This document shows positions 7,924-23,267 of a stretch of DNA of 25,189 bases, piece after piece. Each line of letters opens with the position of its first letter. The first letter of the stretch is position 1. The notes beneath the pieces were generated by a model. That model saw only the letters and a program-made list of their open reading frames with translations, was not told where the DNA came from and did not search any database. Origin of the DNA: a bacterium (GTDB lineage: Bacteria > Desulfobacterota > Binatia > UBA12015); NCBI GenBank assembly GCA_018970825.1, contig JAGWVP010000001.1, positions 1-25,189 on the forward strand, read 5' to 3'. A program made the translations under genes and the position numbers.

Positions 7924-8924
7924 GCGCGGGTTCGACGGCGAACGCTCGTTCCCCGGGCCCCGTCGCGCGGTTCCTTCGCGCGGCCCTGCCCTGGCTGCTC
8001 ACGGCCGCGATCGCCGCGTTCCTGTTTCGCAGGTGGGATCTCCGACGCGTCGTCGAGACGCTCGCGCAGGCACGCTGGGGGCTCTTCCTCGCCCTCATGG
8101 TGCCGTGGTCGATGACCTACCTCGCGCTCGACACCGCGGCCGTGACCCAGGCCGCCCGCCGCTTTCTCGCCGACGTCCGCTGGGCCGAGATCCTGCCGGC
8201 GCGCGCGGCGACCTACGTGCTCTCGCTCGTGAACGGCAACGTCGCGCAGGGCGGGCTCGCCGTCTGGCTCGCCGGACGTCTCTCGGTGCCGGTGCTCGCG
8301 GCCGCGGGCGCGTTCCTCTTCCTCGCCTTCGTCGAGATCTCGCAGCTCGTCCTCTACTCGACGGTCGGGGTCGCGCTCACCGGCACGCGCGTGCCCGGGC
8401 TCGCGCGCTTCCAGGCGGTCGCGCTGGCGGTGCTGGTCGCATGGCTCGCGTGGGCGGCCCGACGTCCGGCTCGGGATTCGCGCGGCGACGCGGGGCTGCT
8501 GTCCGCCTTCTCCCGGGCACGGGTTCCCGACTACCTCGCGATCCTCGGCATCAAGAGCCTGTCGCTCGGCCTCGCGATCCTCGTCCACTGGCAGGCCCTC
8601 CGACTCTTCGGCATCGAGGTGCCGCTGCTCGCCCTGCTCGCGAACCTGCCGCTCGTCTTCCTCGCCTCGGCGGTGCCGCTGTCCGCGGGCAAGCTGCACG
8701 CGAGCGTGGCGTGGGCGCTGCTGTTCGGCGCCTGGGCGCCGGAGGAGAAGCTCGGCGCGTACAGCCTCGCCTCGCACCTGACCTTCCTCGTCCTGAACGC
8801 GCTGCTCGGCCTCGCGTTCGTCCCCCGCGTGGGCCGCGAGATCTGGGACCAGGCCGAGCGCTACGCGCGGTCGCGCGGCGGGCGTCCGACCGACGACGCC
8901 GGGGGCGAAGCCGCCGGGTCCTGA
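7920..8924 (+). CDS. UPF0104 / LPG-synthase TM-region membrane protein (second, divergent)
   Basis: ATGA overlap with the previous gene. LPWLLTAAIAAFLFRRWDLRRVVETLAQARW start, ARAATYVLSLVNGNVAQGG, PLVFLASAVPLS; all multi-TM. Confidence 0.7.
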   Translation: MSAGSTANARSPGPVARFLRAALPWLLTAAIAAFLFRRWDLRRVVETLAQARWGLFLALMVPWSMTYLALDTAAVTQAARRFLADVRWAEILPARAATYVLSLVNGNVAQGGLAVWLAGRLSVPVLAAAGAFLFLAFVEISQLVLYSTVGVALTGTRVPGLARFQAVALAVLVAWLAWAARRPARDSRGDAGLLSAFSRARVPDYLAILGIKSLSLGLAILVHWQALRLFGIEVPLLALLANLPLVFLASAVPLSAGKLHASVAWALLFGAWAPEEKLGAYSLASHLTFLVLNALLGLAFVPRVGREIWDQAERYARSRGGRPTDDAGGEAAGS

Positions 8925-9490
8925 CCCGCCCGGGTTCGCCGCGCCCGGGCCGCGCGCGCGAGCAGCGGCGCGACGTTCGCGATCGCCACCGCGACGCTCG
9001 CCCAGCGGACCGCGGCCGCGGCGCGGGGGACGAGAGGGAGAGCCGAGGCCGCGATCACCGCTCCGTAGTTGAGCACCCCCGCAGCGTGGCCGAGAACGTC
9101 GGCGACGGCGCGGGGCGCGGGCGGCGCGGCGGGGGAGGGCGGCCGCGACGCTCCTGCGCGTCTCGACCACGCGAAGGCGGCGAGAGCGACCGCCGCGGCG
9201 ACGGGCAGCGCGGGCACGACGGCCCCGGACCGGGCGAGCGCCGCGAGGGCGCACAGGACGAAAGCCGCGTCCCCCGCGACGTCGAGCGCGGCTCCTGCCG
9301 CCGACGTCGAACCGGTTCTCCTCGCGAGCCGCCCGTCGACGAAGTCGGTCGCCGCCGCGACCACGGCGATCGCGAGCGGCGCGAGCGAAGCCGGCGCCTC
9401 GCCTGCACCCGCCGGCATCGAGGCGACGAAGAGCGGGGCCAGGACGAGCCGGCTCGCGGAGAGGAGCATCGGAAGCGGGGCGTCGAGCAC
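8861..9490 (-). CDS. CDP-alcohol phosphatidyltransferase (PgsA-like family)
   Basis: Signature D-x2-D-G-x2-A-R-x8-G-x3-D-x3-D present as TDFVDGRLARRTGSTSAAGAALDVAGD; N-terminal LPMLLSASRL. GTG start 9490 with AGGGG 5 nt upstream. Confidence 0.85.
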   Translation of the reverse strand: MLDAPLPMLLSASRLVLAPLFVASMPAGAGEAPASLAPLAIAVVAAATDFVDGRLARRTGSTSAAGAALDVAGDAAFVLCALAALARSGAVVPALPVAAAVALAAFAWSRRAGASRPPSPAAPPAPRAVADVLGHAAGVLNYGAVIAASALPLVPRAAAAVRWASVAVAIANVAPLLARAARARRTRAGQDPAASPPASSVGRPPRDRA

Positions 9491-9559
9491 GATTGCCCCT
9501 CTCGATGCGACGCGGCGGCGGCGGGTGCAAACCCGGGGCCGGTGTTCTACACCCGCGGC

Positions 9560-10858
9560 ATGGCCTTCAAGTTCTGCCCCGAGTGCGGTGCCGAGCTCGA
9601 TCCCGCGGGGCGTTTCTGCGGCGGCTGCGGAGCGGCCGTCGCCGGGGGACGGGCGACCGGCTCCTCGCCCGCTCCGCTCGCCGGTCTCGTCTCGCTCGCG
9701 ACGCTGCTCGCGCTCGGAGGCGGATTCTGGCTCTGGACGCGCTTCGTGCCGCAGGCCCCTCGTCCGCTCAAGCCGGGAGAAGGCCGGGCGCCGGCCGCGG
9801 CGGCGGCCCCCGCGCCGCCGGCCGCGCAGGCGGGTGCGGCCGGAGCCGCGGGAGCGAGTCCCGGGCAGAAGGTCGACCTGCCCGACGACATCAAGCAGTA
9901 CATCGCCGGCCTCGCGAAGGACGCCGATGCGAAGCCGAAGGACCTCGCGGCCTGGCAGACCCTCGCGCGCGTCTACTACCGGGCTTCCCGCATCGATCCC
10001 GCCTACGCGGACAAGGCCACCGCGGCCTACGAGCACGTGCTGCAGATCGACCCGAAGGACCTCGACGGCCTGCGCGGGATGGCGAACGTCGCCTACGACC
10101 ACCAGGACCGTGCGAAGGCGATCGACTTCTACGGTCGCTACCTGGCGATCAAGCCCGACGATTCCGAGGTTCGCACCGACCTCGGCACGATGTTCTTCGA
10201 GAGCGGCGACAAGGGCCGCGCCATGCTCGAGTACCAGCGGGTGGTCGAGAAGAACCCGAAGTTCTTCCAGGCCTACTTCAACATGGCGGTCCTCGAGGAC
10301 TCCCAGGGCAACCGGGACGCGGCCCGCAAGAACCTCGAGAAGGCGCGCGACCTCGCGACCGAGGATCCGGTGAAGCAGCGCATCTCGGGACTGCTCGCCG
10401 CGACCGAGGGCGGCAAGTCGTTCGCCGAGGCTGCGGACCAGTTGCAGCAGCAGGCGGCCGCGGCGCCGCCGCCCGCACCTCCGGGCGCGGCCGGCAGCCC
10501 TCCCGGCGGCCCTCCCGGCGGCCTGCCGGGACCGAACGCGGCTGCGGCCGGTGCCGCCGCGCAGGCCGCCTCGGCCGCCGCGACCACCTACAAGGGCGCG
10601 GTCGAGGCGCTGTTCCGCGGACACGCGATCGCAGGGCCGAAGGTCGTCGCGGTCGAGTGGCCGGCCGAGGATCGCGTCCGGATCTCGCTGAACGGATTCC
10701 CGATGGCCCAGATGCCCGAGGGGATGCGCAACGGGTTCCTCGACAAGATGAAGCGCGGGGCGGCCGATGCACGTGCCCGTTTCGCGGGCTCGCCCGCGAC
10801 GACGATCGAGCTCGTCGACCAGTCCTCGGGCGACGTGATGGCGACGATCGCACCCTGA
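9560..10858 (+). CDS. Double zinc-ribbon + single TM + TPR repeat protein with uncharacterised C-terminal domain (CcmI periplasmic-half-like)
   Basis: FCPECG..FCGGCG at the N-terminus, TM LAGLVSLATLLALGGGFWLW, four or five TPR-like units (KDLAAWQTLARVYY; DLDGLRGMANVAY; DSEVRTDLGTMFF; FFQAYFNMAVL), Pro/Gly/Ala linker, ~90-aa C-terminal domain. Confidence 0.8.
   Translation: MAFKFCPECGAELDPAGRFCGGCGAAVAGGRATGSSPAPLAGLVSLATLLALGGGFWLWTRFVPQAPRPLKPGEGRAPAAAAAPAPPAAQAGAAGAAGASPGQKVDLPDDIKQYIAGLAKDADAKPKDLAAWQTLARVYYRASRIDPAYADKATAAYEHVLQIDPKDLDGLRGMANVAYDHQDRAKAIDFYGRYLAIKPDDSEVRTDLGTMFFESGDKGRAMLEYQRVVEKNPKFFQAYFNMAVLEDSQGNRDAARKNLEKARDLATEDPVKQRISGLLAATEGGKSFAEAADQLQQQAAAAPPPAPPGAAGSPPGGPPGGLPGPNAAAAGAAAQAASAAATTYKGAVEALFRGHAIAGPKVVAVEWPAEDRVRISLNGFPMAQMPEGMRNGFLDKMKRGAADARARFAGSPATTIELVDQSSGDVMATIAP
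10498..10521 (+). repeat. 12-nt tandem repeat (CCCTCCCGGCGG)x2 encoding PPGG-PPGG linker
   Basis: Read directly; followed by a degenerate third unit. Confidence 0.6.
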
Positions 10859-11003
10859 GCCGCGCCCGACCCGGTGGAGGAGGTCGGCGCGACGGCCGGG
10901 TGAAGGCCCGGCGGCTCGCTCCCGACCGCCCCGGTCCGGAGGACGCGGGAGTGCCGACGACGCTCGCTTGATCGCCGACGCCGGGAGGACGACAAGAAGG
11001 GCC

Positions 11004-13403
11004 GTGGCTCCGCCTCCGACGATCGCATCCAACGTCCTGCCGGCGGCGCTCGCGTTGCCGTTCGCGGCGGCGGCGCTGGTGGCGCTCCTCGGCCGGCGAC
11101 TCGGGCGCTCGGCAGGGTGGATCGTCGCGGCGGCCGCCGCGGGAAGTTCTCTCCTCCTGCTCGGCCTGCCCGGCCACGACGCCGTCTCCTCGTTCCGCGT
11201 ACCCTGGCTGCCCGAGATCGGCGTCGAGTTCGCGCTGCGTGCCGACCCGTTCGGGCGCTTCTTCGCGCTGCTCGTCTCGGGTGTCGGCTTCTTCGTCGCG
11301 CTCTACGCGATTTCCTACATGGCCGACGACGACGAGCGGCGCATGCCGCGCTTCTGGGGCGCGCTCGCGGCCTTCATGGGGGCGATGCTCGGCATCGCGC
11401 TCTCGGACGACATGCTGCTGCTCTTCCTGTTCTGGGAGATCACGAGCCTCTCGTCCTTCCTCCTGATCGGGCACCACGACGACGAGCCTGCGGCCCGCGC
11501 GGGCGCGCTCCTCGCGCTGCAGGTGACCGCGCTCGGCGGCCTCGTCCTCGCGCTCGGGGTTCTCCTGGTCGCGCAGGTGACCGGGACCTTCTCGATGAGC
11601 GCCATCGGCGGCGACCCGGCCCGGGTCCGGGCGCTGCTCGACTCGCCGCTCGCGCCGGTCGCGCTCGGTTGCATCCTCGTCGGGGTGTTCACCAAGTCGG
11701 CCCAGTTCCCGTTCCACTTCTGGCTGCCGCGCGCGATGGTCGCGCCGACCCCGGTGTCGGCCTACCTGCACGCGGCGACGATGGTGAAGGCGGGCCCCTT
11801 CCTGCTCGGGCGCATGCTTCCGGTGTTCGGGAGCCTGCCGATGTGGACGCCCGTGCTCGCGTCGGTCGGGCTCGTGACGATGCTGCTCGGCGCCTGGAAG
11901 GCGTTCCGCGAGACCGACCTGAAGGCGATCCTCGCGCGCACGACCGGCTCCACGCTCGGCCTCCTCACGCTGCTCTACGGCTTCGGCGCGGCCGAGCAGG
12001 ACGCGCTCCAGATGCTGAACCACGCCCTCTACAAGGGCGCGCTCTTCCTGGTCGCCGGGATCGTCGACCACCACGCCCACACGCGCGACCTGCGTCGCCT
12101 GGGCGGGCTTCGACGCGAGCTGCCGCTGCCTTTCCTCGCCGCCGTGCTGGCGGGCCTGTCGATGGCCGGCGTGCCTCCGCTGCTCGGCTTCCTCGTGAAG
12201 GAGTCGTTCTACGAGGAGCTGCTCCACAACGAGGCGGTCTCCGGTTTCGCGGGCGGTCGCGCGCTGGTCGTGTTCGCGTGCGTGCTCGCGAACGTCTTCG
12301 TCGCCGCGGTGGCGGCGAAGTTCGTCCTCGGGACCTTCCTCGGCGAGCGGCGCGACGCCGCCCACCAGGCGCCCGGGCAAGCGGCCCGGGAGGGCCACGA
12401 CGACCACCGGCCGTCCGGACCGCCCCTGTGGATCTCGCCGCTCGCGCTCGCGACGGGCGCACTCGCCCTGGGCCTGCTCGGCGCGACCGACTTCACCTCG
12501 CACCTGGCCGGGGCGATCGCCTCGCGACGGGCAAACCCCTTCCACGTCTCGCTCGTTCCTTCCCCCGGGCTCCCGCTCTGGCTGTCGATGGCCGGCATGG
12601 CGGCCGCGGTCGCGCTCTACCTCGCCCGCGGCCGGGTCGAGCGGATCCCCGACCTGGCCGAGTCGCACCACCGGCCGGACCGGCTGTGGGAGCGCATGGT
12701 CGCGAGCCTCGCCGTACTCGGGGAGGACGTCTCGATGCGGTGGCAGAACGGCTCGTTGCGGCGCTACCTCGCGGCGACGCTGCTCTCGGTTCCCGTGCTC
12801 GCGGGCTGGGCGCTCTTCCGGGCCGGCTTGTCGCACCGCGACGTGGTCGTGAGCCTCTCGGAGCTGCCCTGGTTCGGGCTCTTCCTGTGCGTGCTGCTCG
12901 GGATCGCGACGATGATCGCGGTCACCGCGACGACCCGCCTCCAGGCCTCGATCGCGACGACCACGATCGGCTTCCTCGTCTCGATGTTGTTCGTCGTCTA
13001 CCGCTCGCCCGACATCCTGCTGACCCAGATCCTGATCGAGACCGTTTCCACGATCTTCGTTCTCCTCGTCCTGCTGTTCATGCCCGCCTTCCCCAGGCGC
13101 GACATGAGCGGGCCCGCGCACCTCGGGGCGATCGCGGTCGCGACCGTGTTCAGCCTCGTCCTGACGCTCCTGCTGCTGCTGTCGATGACGCCCGGGCTCC
13201 GGGAGGAGGCGAACATCGCCGTCCGCCCGGGCGGACTCCTCTCGCTCGCGCTCGAGAAGGGCGGGGGCGCCAACGCCGTGAACGTCATCATCGTCGACAT
13301 CCGCTCGCTCGACACGAACGGGGAGATCACCGTGCTGGTCGCGGTGGGGCTGTGCGTCTACGCCCTGCTTCGCGCGAGGCGCGCGAGGGGAGCCGGGGCA
13401 TGA
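11004..13403 (+). CDS. mrpA: Multisubunit Na+(K+)/H+ antiporter subunit A
   Basis: FWEITSLSSFLLIG, FTKSAQFPFHFWLP.AM.APTPVSAYLHAATMVKAG, GVPPLLGFLVKE, SPDILLTQILIETV, NVIIVDIRSLDT. Start uncertain: GTG 11004 (AAGAAGG upstream) or TTG 10968. Confidence 0.93.
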   Translation: MAPPPTIASNVLPAALALPFAAAALVALLGRRLGRSAGWIVAAAAAGSSLLLLGLPGHDAVSSFRVPWLPEIGVEFALRADPFGRFFALLVSGVGFFVALYAISYMADDDERRMPRFWGALAAFMGAMLGIALSDDMLLLFLFWEITSLSSFLLIGHHDDEPAARAGALLALQVTALGGLVLALGVLLVAQVTGTFSMSAIGGDPARVRALLDSPLAPVALGCILVGVFTKSAQFPFHFWLPRAMVAPTPVSAYLHAATMVKAGPFLLGRMLPVFGSLPMWTPVLASVGLVTMLLGAWKAFRETDLKAILARTTGSTLGLLTLLYGFGAAEQDALQMLNHALYKGALFLVAGIVDHHAHTRDLRRLGGLRRELPLPFLAAVLAGLSMAGVPPLLGFLVKESFYEELLHNEAVSGFAGGRALVVFACVLANVFVAAVAAKFVLGTFLGERRDAAHQAPGQAAREGHDDHRPSGPPLWISPLALATGALALGLLGATDFTSHLAGAIASRRANPFHVSLVPSPGLPLWLSMAGMAAAVALYLARGRVERIPDLAESHHRPDRLWERMVASLAVLGEDVSMRWQNGSLRRYLAATLLSVPVLAGWALFRAGLSHRDVVVSLSELPWFGLFLCVLLGIATMIAVTATTRLQASIATTTIGFLVSMLFVVYRSPDILLTQILIETVSTIFVLLVLLFMPAFPRRDMSGPAHLGAIAVATVFSLVLTLLLLLSMTPGLREEANIAVRPGGLLSLALEKGGGANAVNVIIVDIRSLDTNGEITVLVAVGLCVYALLRARRARGAGA

Positions 13404-13801
13404 ACGCCGAGTCGCCGATCCTGCGCACCGTCGCCCGCTACGCGATCCCGCTCACGATGCTGGTGGCGCTGCGGATCTTCTTCCAGGGCCACGACCTGCC
13501 CGGCGGAGGATTCATCGCGGGCGTGCTGCTCGCGGCCGCGGGTGCGATCCACCTGCTCGCGAGCGGCGTCGGCGGGGCCGCCCGCGTCCGCTGGTGGCGC
13601 GTCGCCGTCCTCGGGCTCCTCGTGTCGGTCTCGAACGGGATCTGGCCGATGCTGCTCGGCCACCCGTACATGGACAACGAGTTCCTGCACCTGGGGCCCA
13701 TCCACCTGCCCACGGCGACCTTCTTCGACCTCGGGGTGATGCTGATCGTGGTCGGGACCCTGATGACGATCTTCGTCGAGCTGAGCCTGGAGAAGCGCTG
13801 A
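13400..13801 (+). CDS. mrpB: Mrp antiporter subunit B
   Basis: ATGA overlap with mrpA; GHDLPGGGFIAG and FFDLGVMLIVVG motifs. Confidence 0.92.
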   Translation: MNAESPILRTVARYAIPLTMLVALRIFFQGHDLPGGGFIAGVLLAAAGAIHLLASGVGGAARVRWWRVAVLGLLVSVSNGIWPMLLGHPYMDNEFLHLGPIHLPTATFFDLGVMLIVVGTLMTIFVELSLEKR

Positions 13802-13802
13802 G

Positions 13803-14201
13803 ATGGAACTCCCGCTCGCGATCGCGATCGCGCTGCTCTTCGCGGGCGGTGCCTACTCGATCCTGCGCCCCAATTTCTTCCGCATCGTCGTGGGCTTCGG
13901 CCTGCTGTCGAACGCGGTGAACCTGCTCATGATCCTCTGCGGCGGCTTCCGCAGCCAGACGGCCGCGCCCTTCGTCGCGGACCCGCGACGGGTCGACGGG
14001 CTCATGGACCCGATCCCTCCCGACATCATCTTGACGGCGATCGTAATCAGCTTCGCGGTGGGCGCCCTGTTCCTCACCCTCTGTTACGTGGTCTACCGCG
14101 AGTACGGCACCGACGACCCCGAGGCGCTCCCGGTGCGCGAGCCCGAGGACTGGGCGGGCGGCCCCGCCCGCGGCGCGGGCCTCCCGCGCTACGAGGAGTG
14201 A
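13803..14201 (+). CDS. mrpC: Mrp antiporter subunit C
   Basis: RIVVGFGLLSNAVNLL and DPIPPDIILTAIVISF (variant of DPLPQALILTAIVI); position in the operon. Confidence 0.9.
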   Translation: MELPLAIAIALLFAGGAYSILRPNFFRIVVGFGLLSNAVNLLMILCGGFRSQTAAPFVADPRRVDGLMDPIPPDIILTAIVISFAVGALFLTLCYVVYREYGTDDPEALPVREPEDWAGGPARGAGLPRYEE

Positions 14202-14205
14202 GGCC

Positions 14206-15774
14206 GTGAACGCCGTCGTCCTCGTCATCCTCGTCCCCTTCCTCACCGCGATCGGCACGGCCCTGCTCCACGACCGGCCGAGGGCCGAGTCGGCGTTGAA
14301 CGCCGTTTCCTGCCTCGGGCTCGCCGCCTTCGTCTTCTGGCTGCTCGCGAAGGTCGACGCGGACGGGCCCCAGGTGTCGATGATGGGCGGGTACGCCGCG
14401 CCCTACGGGATCGCCTTCGTCGCCGACCGGCTCTCCTGCATCATGCTGTGCCTGTCGATGCTGGTCGCGAGCGTGGTCGCGCTCTACGTGCCGTGGACGG
14501 TCACGCCTCTCCAGCAGTCGCACTTCTTCTACCCGCTCTTCCAGGTCCTGCTTCTCGGCGTGAACTGGTCGTTCATCACCGGCGACCTCTTCAACCTCTT
14601 CGTGTCCTACGAGGTCATGCTCATCGGCTCCTACGGGGTCATGATGTGCGGGTCGTCGCGACAGCAGGTGAGGCAGACCCTCACCTACGTCGCGATCAAC
14701 CTGCTCGGCGGGTCGCTCTTCGTCGTCGGGCTCGGCCTCGTGTACTCGATCGTCGGCACGCTCAACATGGCCGACATCGCGGTCGTGACGAGCCGGCTCG
14801 CGGGTCCGCGCGCCGGGATGCTCACGGCCGCGTCGATGGTCCTGCTCGCGGTGTTCGCACTCAAGGCGGCCGCGTTCCCGCTCTTCTTCTGGCTGCCGGA
14901 TTCGTACCCGATCGTCCCGCTCGGGGTGAACGGGTTCTTCGCGGGCCTTCTCACCAAGGTCGGAATCTACTCGCTCCTGCGGGTCTTCGTGATGACGTTC
15001 CGGCAGCCGGGCAACGAGCTCGCGCTCCAGGCCCTCCTCGTCGCGTCCGCCTTCACGATGGTCGTGGGCGTGCTCGGCGCGCTCTGCCAGTGGGAAGTCC
15101 GACGCGTCCTCTCGTGGCACATCATCAGCCAGGTCGGGTACATGGTCATGGGGATCGGCCTCGCGGCCGACGCGGGCATCGCGACCGCCGCGGTCGCGGC
15201 GACGATCTTCTACGTGGTCCACCACATCGTGGTGAAGGCGAGCCTCTTCCTGGTCGGCGGCATCGCCGAGGAGATCTCCGGCTCGGGGCGGCTGAAGGAG
15301 ATGGGCGGCATCGCGCTCGCGGCACCGGGCGCGGCGGCGCTTTTCTTCGTCTCGGCGCTCTCGCTCGCGGGCATGCCCCCCTTCTCGGGCTTCCTCGCGA
15401 AGCTCGTGCTCGTGCGCACGGCCCTGCGCGGGGCGCATTTCTGGGTCGTGGCGGCCGCGGTCGCGACGAGCTTCCTCACGCTGCTCTCGATGATGAAGAT
15501 CTGGAGCTACGCCTTCTGGGGCGACTGGCACGACGCTCCGCCGCGGCCGCTCTGGCGCCGCATGGCGGCGCCGGTCTCGGTGCTGGTCGCGACGACCGTC
15601 CTGCTCGGGCTCTGGGCGCAGCCCTTCCTGCGGATCGCCTCCGACGCCGCGCGCGGGATCGTCGATCCCGTCGACTACGTGCATGCCGTGCTGGGCCCGG
15701 AGGCGAGCGTCGAGGCCCGGTCCGGAGTCGGAGCGATCGCCTCGGCGCACCTCGCCGCGGAGGGACGGCCATGA
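14206..15774 (+). CDS. mrpD: Mrp antiporter subunit D
   Basis: GTG start after GAGGAG. TGDLFNLFVSYEVML, LKAAAFPLFFWLPDSY, LLTKVGIY, WHIISQVGY, HHIVVKASLF, GMPPFSGFLAK. Confidence 0.93.
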   Translation: MNAVVLVILVPFLTAIGTALLHDRPRAESALNAVSCLGLAAFVFWLLAKVDADGPQVSMMGGYAAPYGIAFVADRLSCIMLCLSMLVASVVALYVPWTVTPLQQSHFFYPLFQVLLLGVNWSFITGDLFNLFVSYEVMLIGSYGVMMCGSSRQQVRQTLTYVAINLLGGSLFVVGLGLVYSIVGTLNMADIAVVTSRLAGPRAGMLTAASMVLLAVFALKAAAFPLFFWLPDSYPIVPLGVNGFFAGLLTKVGIYSLLRVFVMTFRQPGNELALQALLVASAFTMVVGVLGALCQWEVRRVLSWHIISQVGYMVMGIGLAADAGIATAAVAATIFYVVHHIVVKASLFLVGGIAEEISGSGRLKEMGGIALAAPGAAALFFVSALSLAGMPPFSGFLAKLVLVRTALRGAHFWVVAAAVATSFLTLLSMMKIWSYAFWGDWHDAPPRPLWRRMAAPVSVLVATTVLLGLWAQPFLRIASDAARGIVDPVDYVHAVLGPEASVEARSGVGAIASAHLAAEGRP

Positions 15775-16133
15775 GCCTCCGGGGACTTCCGGCGCTGCTG
15801 CGCTACGTCGTCATCCTCGCGCGCGAGGTCGTGCTCGCGAGCATCAGCGTGACGAAACTCGTGTTCGGCCCGACCGACAGGCTGCGGTCCGGCTTCGTCG
15901 CCTACCCGATGGAGGCGGAGACCGACCTCGAGGTGACGACGCTCGCGAACTCGATCACCCTCACGCCCGGCACGATCACGGTCCACGTCGAGCCGGCCGA
16001 CAATCTCCTCATCATGCACGCGATCGACGTCGGCGACGACCCCGAGGGCGTGCGCGAGTCGACCCGGTCCGCGCTCGAGTCGAACATCCTGCGCTGGACG
16101 CGCGCGGGACGCGGCGGGGAGGGAACGCGATGA
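15771..16133 (+). CDS. mrpE: Mrp antiporter subunit E (short form, 120 aa)
   Basis: LANSITLTPGTITV and IMHAIDV motifs; ATGA overlaps at both ends. Confidence 0.9.
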   Translation: MSLRGLPALLRYVVILAREVVLASISVTKLVFGPTDRLRSGFVAYPMEAETDLEVTTLANSITLTPGTITVHVEPADNLLIMHAIDVGDDPEGVRESTRSALESNILRWTRAGRGGEGTR

Positions 16134-16408
16134 GCCCCTGGTTCGCCTGGGTCACCCAGCTCTGCCTGTTCGGCCTCTTCGTCGCGGCGATCCTGTGCCT
16201 CTACCGGATCCTCGTCGGTCCCGGCGCGGCCGATCGAGCGGTCGCCTTCGACACGCTGTCGGCGATCGTCATCGGGATGATCTGCCTGCTGTGCATCCTC
16301 TGGGAGTCGAGCCTGTATTTCGACGCCGTCTGGATCCTGACGCTGGTCGGCTTCCTCGGCTCCGCCGCGGTCGCCCGCTACCTCGCGCGGGGGAGGTTGT
16401 TCCCGTGA
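16130..16408 (+). CDS. mrpF: Mrp antiporter subunit F
   Basis: LYRILVGPGAADRAVAFD, LTLVGFLGSAAVARYL; 92 aa. Confidence 0.9.
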   Translation: MSPWFAWVTQLCLFGLFVAAILCLYRILVGPGAADRAVAFDTLSAIVIGMICLLCILWESSLYFDAVWILTLVGFLGSAAVARYLARGRLFP

Positions 16409-19812: not shown

Positions 19813-20307
19813 GTGAACCGCAAGAGAAAGTTTCTCCTCGGGTCCGCAATCCTGGTCGCCGCGATCGGCACGCTGGTCTGGACCGCCGTCCGCGAGACTT
19901 CCGCCTACTTCATGACCGTCGACGAGTGGGCGGTCGACCCCGGGGCCCATGCCGACGCCTCGCTCCGGCTCGCCGGCCGGGTCACGCAGGGCAGCGTCCA
20001 GTGGGATCCGAAGACCCTCGACCTGGCCTTCGTGCTCATGCCCATCCCCAAGGGGCAGGGCGGTAGCCACGAGGGAAGGCGGGCCGGCGAGACGCTGCCG
20101 ATCGCGACGGCAGAAGCCCGCCTCCCGGTGTCCTACAACGGCATCCTGCCCGACATGTTCGCCGACGGTCGCGACGTGATCGTCGAGGGGCGCGTCGTCG
20201 ACGGGGTGTTCCACGCGAAGTCGCTGCTCACGACCTGCCCGTCGAAGTACGAGGCGGACAAGCAAGCGCCGGCGCAGGAAGCCGGCGGGAACGGGAGCCC
20301 GGCATGA
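19813..20307 (+). CDS. ccmE: Cytochrome c maturation heme chaperone CcmE, CxxxY variant
   Basis: N-terminal TM, YFMTVDE, LRLAGRV..GS, PVSYNGILPDMFADGRDVIVEG, CPSKY in place of HxxxY. Confidence 0.93.
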   Translation: MNRKRKFLLGSAILVAAIGTLVWTAVRETSAYFMTVDEWAVDPGAHADASLRLAGRVTQGSVQWDPKTLDLAFVLMPIPKGQGGSHEGRRAGETLPIATAEARLPVSYNGILPDMFADGRDVIVEGRVVDGVFHAKSLLTTCPSKYEADKQAPAQEAGGNGSPA

Positions 20308-22295
20308 GCGAGATCGGCCGCCTGGCCATCGTCCTCGGTTTCGTCGTCGCCCTCTGGGGCATCGGCGCGAGCGTCCTCGGGGCGCTGCGGCGCGACCGCG
20401 ACCTCGTCGCGAGCGGGTCGCATGCCGCCTACGCCTTCTCGGCGCTCGTCGGCATCGCCGTCGCGGCGCTGCTCTATCTCCTGCTCACGCACGATTTCAA
20501 CGTCGAGTACGTCGCGTCCTATTCCTCCACCACGCTGCCGGTCTGGTACACGATCTCGGCGCTCTGGGGCGGGATGAAGGGATCGCTCCTCTGGTGGACC
20601 TTCATCCTCGCGGTCTGCAACGCGATCGTGCAGGCCCAGAACCGGGCGAAGAACCGGGACGCGATGCCGTGGGTCACCGCGGTGCTGCTCTCGGTGGGCG
20701 CGTTCTTCCTGTCCCTCCTCGTGTTCGTGACCGATCCCTTCGAGCGGCTGTCGTTCACGCCGGCCGAGGGTTCCGACCTGAACCCGCTGCTGCAGAACTA
20801 CTGGATGACGATCCACCCGCCGTCGCTCTACGTCGGGTTCGTCACGACGACGGTGCCCTTCGCCTTCGCGATCGCGGCGCTCGCCACCGGGAAGCTCGGA
20901 GACAACTGGATTCGCACGACGCGGCGCTGGACGATCTTCTCCTGGTTCTTCCTGACGCTCGGCAACCTGTTCGGCGCGGCCTGGGCCTACGTCGTCCTCG
21001 GATGGGGCGGTTACTGGGCCTGGGATCCCGTCGAGAACGCGGCCTTCATGCCCTGGCTCACCTCCACCGCCTTCCTCCACTCGGTGATGATCCAGGAGAA
21101 GAAGGACATGCTGAAGGTCTGGAACATGGTCCTCGTGATCCTGACCTTCGCGCTCACGATCTTCGGCACGTTCCTCACCCGCTCGGGCGTCATCTCGTCC
21201 GTCCACTCGTTCACCCAGTCGGGCATGGGGCCGTTCTTCATGGGCTTCCTGCTGTTCGTGCTCGCGGTCTCGATCGGGCTCCTCGCGTGGCGCCTTCCGA
21301 TGCTGAAGAGCCGCAACGAGCTCGAGTCGGTCTTCTCGCGCGAGGCGGCCTTCCTGCTGAACAACCTGGTGCTCGTCGGGATCGCCTTCACCGTCTTCTG
21401 GGGCACGGTGTTCCCGGTGATCTCCGAGTGGGTCCGGGGCGTGAAGATCACCGTCGGGCCGCCGTTCTTCAACCGGGTGAACGCGCCGCTCGCCCTCGCG
21501 CTCGTGCTGCTCATGGGCATCGGGCCGGTGATCGCCTGGCGCCGCGCGAGCTGGCAGAGCCTGAAGCGCAGCTTCCTGTGGCCGACCGCGACCGGCCTCG
21601 CGGTCGGGCTCGCCTCCCTGCTCCTCGCGGGCGGCAACTTCTACGCCGTCGTCGCGTTCTCTCTCTCGGCGTTCGCGCTCACCACGGTGTGGATCGAGTT
21701 CTGGCGCGGCATGCGGGTGCGCCAGGCGATGCTCGGCGAGCCCGCGTGGACCGCGCTCTCGCGCCTCGTGGGCAAGAACCGTCGACGTTACGGCGGCTAC
21801 GTCGTCCACGTCGGAACCGCGATGGTGTTCATCGGCATCGTCGCATCCTCCGTGTTCAAGCTCGAGAAGCAGCAGGGGCTCGAGCCGGGCGGCACGGTCG
21901 ACATCGGCCCCTACACGCTCCGCTACGACGGCGTCCGCACCGAGAGCGACCCGCACGTCGACAAGACCCTCGCGCAGGTCTTCGTCACGCGCGGCGGAAA
22001 GCCCGTCGGCACCCTCGAGCCGGAGAAGCGCTTCTACAAGCGCACCAAGCAGCCGACCACCGAGGTCGCGATCTGGTCGACGCTCGGAAGCGACCTCTAC
22101 GTCGTTCTCGGAAGTTACGACGCGCCTTCGAAGTCGGCCGTGCTGCAGGTCTTCCTGAACCCGCTCATGGCGTGGATGTGGCTCGGCGGAGTCGTCATGG
22201 CTCTCGGCACCGCGATCTGCATGTGGCCGGCCTGGTCGGAGCGCACGGCCACGGTGGCGGCGGGCCTGCCCGCGGGAACGCGGACCGCGTCTTGA
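20304..22295 (+). CDS. ccmF: Cytochrome c heme lyase subunit CcmF
   Basis: W.G..GSLLWW, LNPLLQNYWMTIHPP, WWD domain WAY.VLGWGGYWAWDPVENAAFMPW, TAFLHS, TFLTRSG..SVHSF, GGYVVHVG, NPLMAWMWLGG. Confidence 0.96.
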   Translation: MSEIGRLAIVLGFVVALWGIGASVLGALRRDRDLVASGSHAAYAFSALVGIAVAALLYLLLTHDFNVEYVASYSSTTLPVWYTISALWGGMKGSLLWWTFILAVCNAIVQAQNRAKNRDAMPWVTAVLLSVGAFFLSLLVFVTDPFERLSFTPAEGSDLNPLLQNYWMTIHPPSLYVGFVTTTVPFAFAIAALATGKLGDNWIRTTRRWTIFSWFFLTLGNLFGAAWAYVVLGWGGYWAWDPVENAAFMPWLTSTAFLHSVMIQEKKDMLKVWNMVLVILTFALTIFGTFLTRSGVISSVHSFTQSGMGPFFMGFLLFVLAVSIGLLAWRLPMLKSRNELESVFSREAAFLLNNLVLVGIAFTVFWGTVFPVISEWVRGVKITVGPPFFNRVNAPLALALVLLMGIGPVIAWRRASWQSLKRSFLWPTATGLAVGLASLLLAGGNFYAVVAFSLSAFALTTVWIEFWRGMRVRQAMLGEPAWTALSRLVGKNRRRYGGYVVHVGTAMVFIGIVASSVFKLEKQQGLEPGGTVDIGPYTLRYDGVRTESDPHVDKTLAQVFVTRGGKPVGTLEPEKRFYKRTKQPTTEVAIWSTLGSDLYVVLGSYDAPSKSAVLQVFLNPLMAWMWLGGVVMALGTAICMWPAWSERTATVAAGLPAGTRTAS

Positions 22296-22807
22296 GCGGC
22301 CCCCGGGTCCCCCCGTTGCGTCGCCGGGATTTCCTCGCGGGCGCCGCGGTCTCCTTCGCCCTGCTCGCGGGGCCCGCGGCCGCCGGAGCCTCCGCACCGA
22401 CGCAGGCGGGACTCGAAAGCGGTCTCACCTGCCAATGCGGCTGCGGCCTCACGGTGCATTCGTGCAACCACCTGAACTGCAGCTCGAGCATCCCCCTCAA
22501 GAAGGAAATCTCGGAGAGGATCGCCCTCGGCGGGTCCGAAGAGGAGATCCTCTCCTACTTCCAGGCCAAGTACGGCGAAAAGATCCTGTCGGCGCCGACG
22601 ACCACCGGCTTCAACCTCGCCGCGTGGACCATGCCCTTCGTCGGCATCGGCCTCGGGGCCGCGATCATCGGCTGGGTCCTCGCGCGGTGGCGCCGCGGTG
22701 CGGCGAGCCGGCCTGCACCGGTGGTCGCCCGGGACTCGCTCGAGGGCGATCCCGCGAGCCGCGACCGGATCGAGGCCGCCCTGCGCGACTGGGACACGCG
22801 GAGCTGA
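22292..22807 (+). CDS. ccmH: CcmH/CycL-like cytochrome c biogenesis protein, Cys-rich variant
   Basis: TTG start overlapping the ccmF stop (TTGA). LTCQCGC..C..C replaces LRCxxC; the conserved I..YF..KYGEKILSAP...GFN.AAW.MP block is followed by a TM. Confidence 0.82.
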   Translation: MSGPRVPPLRRRDFLAGAAVSFALLAGPAAAGASAPTQAGLESGLTCQCGCGLTVHSCNHLNCSSSIPLKKEISERIALGGSEEEILSYFQAKYGEKILSAPTTTGFNLAAWTMPFVGIGLGAAIIGWVLARWRRGAASRPAPVVARDSLEGDPASRDRIEAALRDWDTRS

Positions 22808-22808
22808 G

Positions 22809-23267
22809 ATGGCCCTGACGCTCGTGGGCCTCGCGGTCGTCCTCGCCGCCGCTTGGTGGATCACCTGGCCGCTCCTCTCTCCGGCCGGAGGAGACGCCTT
22901 CGGTTCGGTCGATGCCGGTCCCGGGCTGATCGTGGAGCGCAGCGAGGTCGAGCGCGAGCGCGACAACGCGCTCGCCGCGATCCGCGAGGCCGAGTTCGAC
23001 CATCGCCTCGGCAAGCTGACCGACGACGATTACGCGCGGCTGCGGAGGGACCAGGAGGAGCGTGCCCTCGCCGCACTGGCCTCGATCGAACGTTCGGCGG
23101 CCGGCGATCCGGGTATCGCCGCGAGCGCCGGCCGCAAGGCCGTCGACGTGCGCAAGTCGGGCTCGACGGGAGGCGCAGCCTTCTGCACCGCCTGCGGCAA
23201 GCCGGCGCGGGGCGCACGCTTCTGTCCCGCCTGCGGGACGAAACTCCGCGCACCCGCGCGGGGATGA
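22809..23267 (+). CDS. CcmI N-terminal-like membrane protein with C-terminal double zinc ribbon
   Basis: TM ending in WPLL, helical ERDNALAAIREAEFDHRLGKLTDDDYARLR (CcmI cytoplasmic loop pattern), then FCTACG..RFCPACG; no second TM or TPR. Confidence 0.75.
   Translation: MALTLVGLAVVLAAAWWITWPLLSPAGGDAFGSVDAGPGLIVERSEVERERDNALAAIREAEFDHRLGKLTDDDYARLRRDQEERALAALASIERSAAGDPGIAASAGRKAVDVRKSGSTGGAAFCTACGKPARGARFCPACGTKLRAPARG

Follow-up and report, generated by a model that had tools for sequence, protein, structure and literature searches.

A five-cysteine CcmH subfamily encoded beside Cys-type CcmE, with a twin-arginine-like signal in one genus of Binatia

Introduction

Classical CcmH proteins (also Ccl2 or CycL), as represented by the structure 2HL7 and the N-terminal domain 2KW0, share a three-helix periplasmic fold with a redox loop between helices 1 and 2, and their role is thiol-disulfide exchange. 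Cys-x-Cys sites are also found in other small helical domains, where they are redox-active or bind zinc, as in the CPC site of Mia40 and the CXC...CXXC zinc switch of Hsp33; redox activity is likewise a property of CGC peptides. Here we analyze a 25,189-nucleotide stretch of DNA (NCBI GenBank assembly GCA_018970825.1, contig JAGWVP010000001.1, positions 1 to 25,189 of the forward strand; hereafter ‘the window’) from a bacterium of the GTDB lineage Desulfobacterota, Binatia, UBA12015. A gene on its plus strand at 22292..22807 encodes a protein of 171 amino acids, assigned by its translation and by Pfam PF03918 to the same family as classical CcmH, in which the redox loop has become a cluster of five cysteines. 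We refer to this protein as CcmH*.

Two further systems invite comparison. System I*, in which CcmE is of the Cys type, is known from Desulfovibrio and archaea (Allen et al., 2006; Goddard et al., 2010), and passages in two reviews describe it as lacking CcmH (PMC3601427, PMC9084895). Tat-dependent, C-tail-anchored proteins, among them hydrogenase small subunits, FdnH and HybA, resemble CcmH* in having an N-terminal twin-arginine (RR) signal, a single C-terminal helix and basic residues (PMC10924467). In the reading that we favour, and to which we give a probability of roughly 0.6, CcmH* serves a CcmF/H cytochrome c synthase as its CcmH subunit, and the CcmE partner of this synthase is of the Cys type (CxxxY).

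Results

CcmH* belongs to the CcmH family and carries a five-cysteine loop

Pfam PF03918 (CcmH/CycL/Ccl2/NrfF) matched residues 41-139 of CcmH* at 53.3 bits, relative to a gathering cut-off of 25, while no NCBIfam model matched the protein. Searched against the PDB as a single sequence, CcmH* gave no match, and a profile was required: the profile of 86 homologues matched both 2KW0 (Escherichia coli CcmH) and 2HL7 (Pseudomonas aeruginosa CcmH) with E-values of about 8e-7. The AlphaFold2 (AF2) model of CcmH* had a mean predicted local distance difference test score (pLDDT) of 88, rising to about 95 over the Cys loop. When this model was superposed on 2hl7_A by VIA-align, 66 residues were matched with a Z-score of 8.2 and a root-mean-square deviation of 3.0 Å, the runner-up reaching a Z-score of 4.5, and Foldseek returned a probability of 0.99 with an E-value of 0.09. 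The periplasmic domain is a three-helix bundle of residues 36-105 (22397..22606), modelled at pLDDT 88-97 and delimited by AF2, VIA-align and the profile. These results show CcmH* to be a member of the CcmH family with the fold of that family, as a first-pass annotation of the window had proposed.

The LRCxxC redox motif of classical CcmH is absent from CcmH*, and LTCQCGC stands in its place. In the profile alignment C47 falls on the first Cys of LRCxxC, the only cysteine that aligns unambiguously, which bears out the earlier proposal that a Cys-rich cluster has replaced the classical dithiol. The complete cluster, in the loop between helices 1 and 2, is C47-Q-C49-G-C51-G-L-T-V-H56-S-C58-N-H60-L-N-C63 (22430..22480). 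A search of 1.84 billion representative proteins returned 781 clusters (50% identity) at E ≤1e-10. Among the best 150 of these, CxCxC was present in 142 representatives, and the motif CQCGCGLTVH[SA]CNH..C was found in all 120 of the closest database clusters. Across 86 sequences of 30-80% identity, C47, C49, C51 and C58 were invariant, and C63 and G50 were at least 90% conserved. The five-cysteine cluster is therefore the mark of a large CcmH subfamily, not a peculiarity of this gene. In the ESM Atlas the matches were CcmH clusters only, with Gemmatimonadota the most frequent, and in the CcmH literature that was searched we found no description of a five-Cys variant.

The spacing of the last Cys pair divides the subfamily into types: x4 in 103 representatives, x5 in 22 and x1 in 12, the last having x6 before C58 in nine cases and x7 in three. 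In the x4 type, position 60 was His in 88 sequences, Met in 12 and Asn in three (n=103), while position 56 was poorly conserved (Ala 22, His 20, Ser 18). Invariant methionines mark the other two types, lying two residues ahead of the last Cys in x5 (22/22) and at position 53 in x1 (M53; 9/9). Since position 60 is conserved as His or Met and H56 is not, the conserved unit consists of five Cys plus one His or Met. The first-pass annotation had described a five-Cys/two-His cluster; the five cysteines, invariant or nearly so, stood, and of the two histidines only H60 did, with Met in its place in some lineages. The alignments show that an active-site loop of the form C-x-C-G-C-x6-C-x(1-5)-C with one His/Met replaces LRCxxC throughout the subfamily. 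A further subtype, C-x-C-G-x-C-x6-C-x4-C, retains an embedded CxxC (six sequences: P0199, P0239, P0240, P0253, P0255 and P0264) and may stand midway between LRCxxC and CxCxC. When searched against the PDB on its own, the 26-residue Cys loop gave only a chance match (E 7.8).

Two side observations concern the wider family. A few x5 members (P0191, P0184, P0202, P0257, L135 and L169) have long Met/His-rich stretches N-terminal to the CcmH domain, resembling, by analogy, the Met motifs of periplasmic copper proteins. In addition, a second, distant CcmH-like match occurs elsewhere in two genomes of the window’s GTDB family (L199 on G016:C318 and L200 on G001:C52), at 32-33% identity and E-values of about 1e-12.

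ccmH* lies in a compact block with ccmF and a Cys-type ccmE

The gene order is ccmE, ccmF, ccmH* and a zinc-ribbon gene, in a tight block in which ccmH* is third. ccmE (19813..20307, plus strand), identified by Pfam CcmE and its motif, encodes CPSKY, i.e., the CxxxY form, in codons 20236-20250. ccmF (20304..22295, plus strand) is matched by Pfam CcmF_C and Cytochrom_C_asm, and its product has the WWD motif at residues 234-241 and histidines at 171, 259, 301 and 502. The TTG start of ccmH* at 22292 overlaps the ccmF stop codon TGA (22293-22295) in the tetranucleotide TTGA, by which ccmH* is translationally coupled to ccmF; this ‘GTC TTG A’ junction is kept in two related genomes (L005 and L006). 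The TGA stop of ccmH* lies at 22805-22807, and the next gene starts 1 nucleotide beyond it.

The association of the CxCxC type of CcmH with Cys-type CcmE held wherever it could be read. CcmE had C-P-S-K-Y in 72/72 species-level genome loci with a readable CcmE beside a CxCxC CcmH. For a more distant sample, loci were taken from one metagenome scan that covered the x5 subfamily and relatives, 34-54% identical to their own query; here all 16 true CcmE matches were of the Cys type, bringing the total to 88/88. ccmF was directly upstream of ccmH* in 65/80 of these distant loci, and the remainder were short contigs. The zinc-ribbon gene lay immediately 3' of ccmH* in 79/80 genome loci and 57/80 metagenome loci. 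In the window the small product of this downstream gene (22809..23267, plus strand) has a membrane helix at its N-terminus, then a coiled coil, and at its C-terminus a CxxC...CxxC zinc ribbon, for which Pfam zinc-ribbon scores are near the cut-offs; judged from its sequence, it may act as a partner resembling CcmI, with the zinc ribbon in the cytoplasm.

A complex model positions the loop near the WWD motif of CcmF

The CcmF-CcmH* complex model scored 0.68 by ipSAE (an interface score derived from predicted aligned errors), versus 0.00 for the best of three controls. The mark of 0.68 is attained by 58/80 solved complexes and by 2/110 mismatched pairs. Contact agreement among the model runs was at least 64%, and the pLDDT of the partner at least 66. 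In the model the membrane helix of CcmH* packs on CcmF helices 338-396, and loop residues 50-54, 56-59 and 61 contact CcmF residues 232-241 and 298-299. Residues 232-241 are LGWGGYWAWD, which includes the WWD heme-handling motif, and residues 298-299 adjoin H301; H60 is absent from the confidently modelled CcmF contacts. The model supports binding of CcmH* to CcmF with the Cys loop predicted at the WWD heme site.

The N-terminus of CcmH* resembles the Tat signals of its own genome

The predicted signal peptide of CcmH*, as read from the sequence (residues 1-31, 22292..22384), comprises the n-region MSGPRVPPL, a twin-arginine motif, an Ala/Gly-rich h-region (F14-A31) and an AAA|G cleavage site. 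The motif RRRDFL (R10-L15, 22319..22336), recognized from the sequence and its conservation in relatives, contains R11-R12-D-F-L at the boundary of the n- and h-regions and fits the twin-arginine translocation (Tat) consensus S/T-R-R-x-F-L-K. On manual reading the signal also satisfies the TATFIND rules. Translation from a start further 3', which would leave out the RR pair, was considered and ruled out, since ATG, GTG and TTG are all absent downstream of 22316 as far as the Cys cluster. RRRDFL is present in the protein from either start, because TTG 22316 is the sole alternative in-frame start upstream of the cluster. The RRxFL motif, Ala/Gly-rich h-region and AxA site of the first-pass annotation, and its remark that the RR pair survives the alternative start, were all confirmed.

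The hydrophobicity of the h-region was compared with that of other exported proteins by the best 10-mer Kyte-Doolittle window, which is 2.06 for CcmH*, 2.04-3.15 for 25 cytochrome c open reading frames (ORFs) of the same genome, and 1.7-2.3 for RRRFL proteins on contigs C52, C124 and C34. With CcmH* excluded, RRxF[LIVM] followed by an uncharged hydrophobic stretch was found at the N-terminus of only four of about 2,360 coding-like frames. Of these four strict carriers, one is a PF04185 phosphoesterase (RRRFLAGLAAGAG), one is a PNPOx-like flavoprotein, and the other two ORFs had no Pfam assignment; as families, the PF04185 phosphoesterases and PNPOx-like flavoproteins would both suit Tat export. 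CxxCH cytochromes c are obligate Sec substrates, and none of the 25 CxxCH cytochrome ORFs of the genome has the RRxF[LIVM] motif. The genome encodes TatC (133 bits) and has three TatA/B matches, one of them beside tatC. The RRDFL motif, the weak h-region and the presence of TatC and TatA/B thus uphold the earlier view that the signal matches Tat signals well. Within this genus, Tat export of CcmH* is plausible and, given a signal like the genome’s own Tat signals, stands slightly better than an even chance.

A predicted membrane helix (residues ~109-131) and the sequence RWRR (132-135) follow the periplasmic domain (22616..22696), within an AF2 helix of residues 109-138. The narrower homologue alignment has R132, W112 and P115 invariant. 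Beyond RWRR lies a predicted cytoplasmic tail of 36 amino acids (residues 136-171, 22697..22804), in which the alignment and AF2 indicate a conserved C-terminal helix R.RLE.ELRD.D.RS; AF2 predicts this helix at residues 154-170. The proposal that CcmH* is a tail-anchored Tat substrate therefore holds for the C-terminal helix and the RWRR, and fails in that CcmH* is not strictly tail-anchored, because a 36-residue tail with a predicted helix follows.

Differently exported homologues carry the same cluster

We then considered how widely the RR signal is shared. The window’s GTDB family was sampled with 20 genomes from eight genera. RRxFL was found in 3/3 genomes of the window’s genus and in none of the other seven genera, of which six have Sec-type signals and one a lipobox. 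In the last of these (g6; L196, L197 and L198) CcmH* carries a lipobox, LGGC or SAGC, suggesting that CcmH exists there as a lipoprotein. Outside the window’s genus, RRxFL occurs in a few metagenomic kin only. Among the 80 closest species-level genomes, 57 CcmH* signals were Sec-like, 11 proteins had no signal peptide, eight had a loose RR accompanied by a Sec-like hydrophobic core and three had a strict RRxF. In distant subfamilies 60/74 were Sec-like, often with Lys-rich n-regions. The 11 signal-less proteins start with MN/KA[ST]Q at helix 1; judging from their sequences, these 70-residue domains would need to be translocated as N-tails, preceding the only membrane helix.

In a tree of the mature domain, the eight sequences with RRx[FV]L near the window (P0001-P0008) formed one clade, 8/8 with the motif, having a Shimodaira-Hasegawa-like support of 88 (98 for the inner six) and nested among motif-free sequences. 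The codons for the RR arginines differ between genomes, and A-R-A occurs in the c-region of 5/7 distinct clade sequences. The h-regions of the RR signals were less hydrophobic, with a best-window median of 2.12 versus 2.84 for Sec-like relatives. Lack of RR conservation among close homologues is regarded as evidence against Tat export, and high G+C content raises the number of Arg pairs (PMC10924467).

The first-pass annotation had taken Tat export as a sign that CcmH* carries a cofactor, and had called for the frequency of RRxFL among CxCGC-type homologues. That frequency proved low, and the homologues are mostly Sec-like, an outcome that the annotation itself had listed as speaking against its proposal. 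Because differently exported homologues carry the same cluster, it can mature after Sec or N-tail export. The loop is exported by Sec, as a lipoprotein, without a signal and behind RR, and so does not depend on cytoplasmic cofactor insertion. The cluster being independent of Tat, the causal link from Tat to a cofactor is removed. The probable move to Tat is a switch of export within one genus and does not follow from the cluster.

Genome context and other genes of the window

The source genome is a metagenome-assembled genome of 3.8 Mb in 776 contigs, 81.5% complete and of 72.7% G+C. ccmH* is its only PF03918 match. It has one CcmE, a CcmB on another contig and a DsbD-type membrane domain, and no CcmG equivalog scored above the cut-off in this 81.5% complete assembly. 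Upstream in the window, a large TPR-repeat ORF at 8033-10858 (plus strand), 9 kb from ccmE, has a sub-threshold match to the CcmH/CycH TPR domain (33.7 bits, cut-off 42) and could be a candidate CcmI-type apocytochrome chaperone. An Mrp/Mbh-type multisubunit cation-proton antiporter cluster (Proton_antipo_M, MbhD/E, MrpF; 10968-16408, plus strand) is unrelated to ccmH*.

Discussion

In the account that we favour, in which CcmH* is the CcmH partner of CcmF beside a Cys-type CcmE, the Cys loop would be positioned on the WWD heme-handling site of CcmF and its several cysteines would carry out thiol-disulfide chemistry. Among them, a CxC or CxxxC pair would substitute for the classical CxxC and keep the cysteines of the apocytochrome CxxCH motif reduced and positioned, and the leftover cysteines would form a second crosslink or a relay. 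In this genus the protein would have acquired a twin-arginine signal and would probably be routed through Tat, its C-terminal helix being inserted afterwards. By analogy with the family, the loop may be a thiol-disulfide site of several cysteines that evolved from the classical CxxC, a proposal that we rate at about even odds and prefer over a metal site.

Several points weigh against this account. The redox role of CcmH* is inferred from the function of the family. The His/Met beside five Cys, His in 88 and Met in 12 of 103 sequences, looks like a metal or heme ligand, and as read from the alignment an odd number of invariant cysteines misfits disulfides alone. No solved CcmF-CcmH structure was found that could serve as a check on the modelled interface. 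With regard to the signal, Arg-rich n-regions are common in a genome of such high G+C content, the c-region of CcmH* (PAAA|GAS) has no basic residue, and export by Sec is still open to RR signals (PMC10924467).

The last three points also serve the strongest of the alternatives, in which RRDFL is a non-functional Tat signal, export proceeds by Sec or the signal recognition particle as in the relatives, and RR is a by-product of Arg-rich n-regions at high G+C, where Arg is favoured over Lys. It is helped by the mostly Sec-like or signal-less homologues, and by a mature domain that shows no obvious change in the RR clade relative to its Sec-exported sisters. However, RRx[FV]L occupies precisely the n/h boundary throughout the clade and the genus while the remaining signal has diverged, the h-region is weaker than in Sec-like relatives, the strict motif is rare in the genome, with both family-assigned carriers (two of the four) suiting Tat, and the cytochromes c lack it. 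We therefore consider Sec export a serious possibility, somewhat short of an even chance.

A metal-binding loop is the next alternative. Here the five Cys and the His/Met would bind Cu(I) or Zn(II), acquirable in either compartment, and the metal would structure the loop or aid the handling of heme or apocytochrome at CcmF. The five Cys and His/Met lie within 17 residues of confidently modelled coil, position 60 alternates between His and Met, the x5 and x1 types have invariant methionines of their own, and the Met/His-rich stretches of a few x5 members have their like in periplasmic copper proteins. In a genus that routes CcmH* through Tat, folding of the domain would also need to take place in the reducing cytoplasm, and this should be easier with metal than with disulfides. 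On the other side, the loop has no likeness to a known metal site and on its own matches nothing in the PDB, the Met/His-rich extensions are rare in the subfamily, and the established function of the family is thiol-disulfide chemistry. As read from the homologues, zinc or copper is left open by Sec export, unlike an Fe-S centre. The metallo-CcmH of the first-pass annotation thus survives in this form as a tentative minority view, below Sec export in our estimate. The more general proposition that CcmH* is a cofactor-bearing subunit, through Cu(I)/Zn(II) binding or heme ligation above the CcmF WWD site, and a dedicated partner of Cys-type CcmE, we regard as unlikely.

Less probable still, and to our minds doubtful, is that H60 or its Met counterpart transiently provides an axial ligand to the heme held at the WWD site of CcmF, with the cysteines holding the loop. 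The interchange of His and Met is typical of heme axial ligands, and the loop is modelled against the WWD residues near H301; H60 itself, however, is not among the confidently modelled contacts, and position 60 is Asn in 3/103 sequences.

The strong version of the earlier proposal, an Fe-S centre inserted in the cytoplasm that forces Tat export, could draw on the Cys-rich cluster, the Tat-like signal and the Tat machinery of the genome, and is nevertheless very improbable, because periplasmic Fe-S proteins are obligately Tat-dependent (PMC10924467) while the identical cluster occurs on Sec-type, lipoprotein and signal-less homologues, including those of the other seven of the eight family genera, and a conserved Met ligand would be unusual for such a centre.

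On the favoured reading, of a CcmH subunit working with CcmF and a Cys-type CcmE, the main interest lies in the uncharacterised five-Cys subfamily tied to this CcmE, and not in the genus-level Tat-like signal. A subfamily of 781 clusters travels only with the CcmE type that reviews pair with no CcmH. The five-Cys CcmH offers a testable handle on thioether-linked heme and on the handling of apocytochrome thiols. If the metal or heme reading were true, ‘CcmH-less’ System I* would have a metallo-CcmH of its own in many bacterial lineages, with a chemistry unlike that of the CxxC dithiol. That one small domain occurs in four export forms (Sec, lipoprotein, none and Tat-like), three of them (Sec, lipoprotein and Tat-like) within one bacterial family, implies that its export is easily re-routed, and this diversity cautions against reading a cofactor from a single RR motif.

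Compared with the known systems, CcmH* shares with classical CcmH the YG...P core, a membrane anchor after the domain and a gene adjoining ccmF. It differs from classical CcmH in having LTCxCGC-x6-C-x4-C plus His/Met for LRCxxC, in a loop about three residues longer, and in its partner CcmE, which is CxxxY instead of HxxxY. The likeness to System I* lies in the CPSKY of the window’s CcmE and in the lack of a CcmG equivalog above the cut-off; unlike System I*, the CcmH variant is always present beside ccmF (88/88 loci with a readable CcmE), and a zinc-ribbon membrane protein follows. Proteins of the FdnH/HybA type carry Fe-S clusters and conserve RR across their homologues, whereas in CcmH* the RR motif is limited to one genus; unlike the Tat tail-anchored examples, CcmH* has no indicated cofactor inserted in the cytoplasm and ends in a 36-residue cytoplasmic tail. 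The resemblance to Mia40 and Hsp33 is one of analogy only, with no detectable homology to CcmH*.

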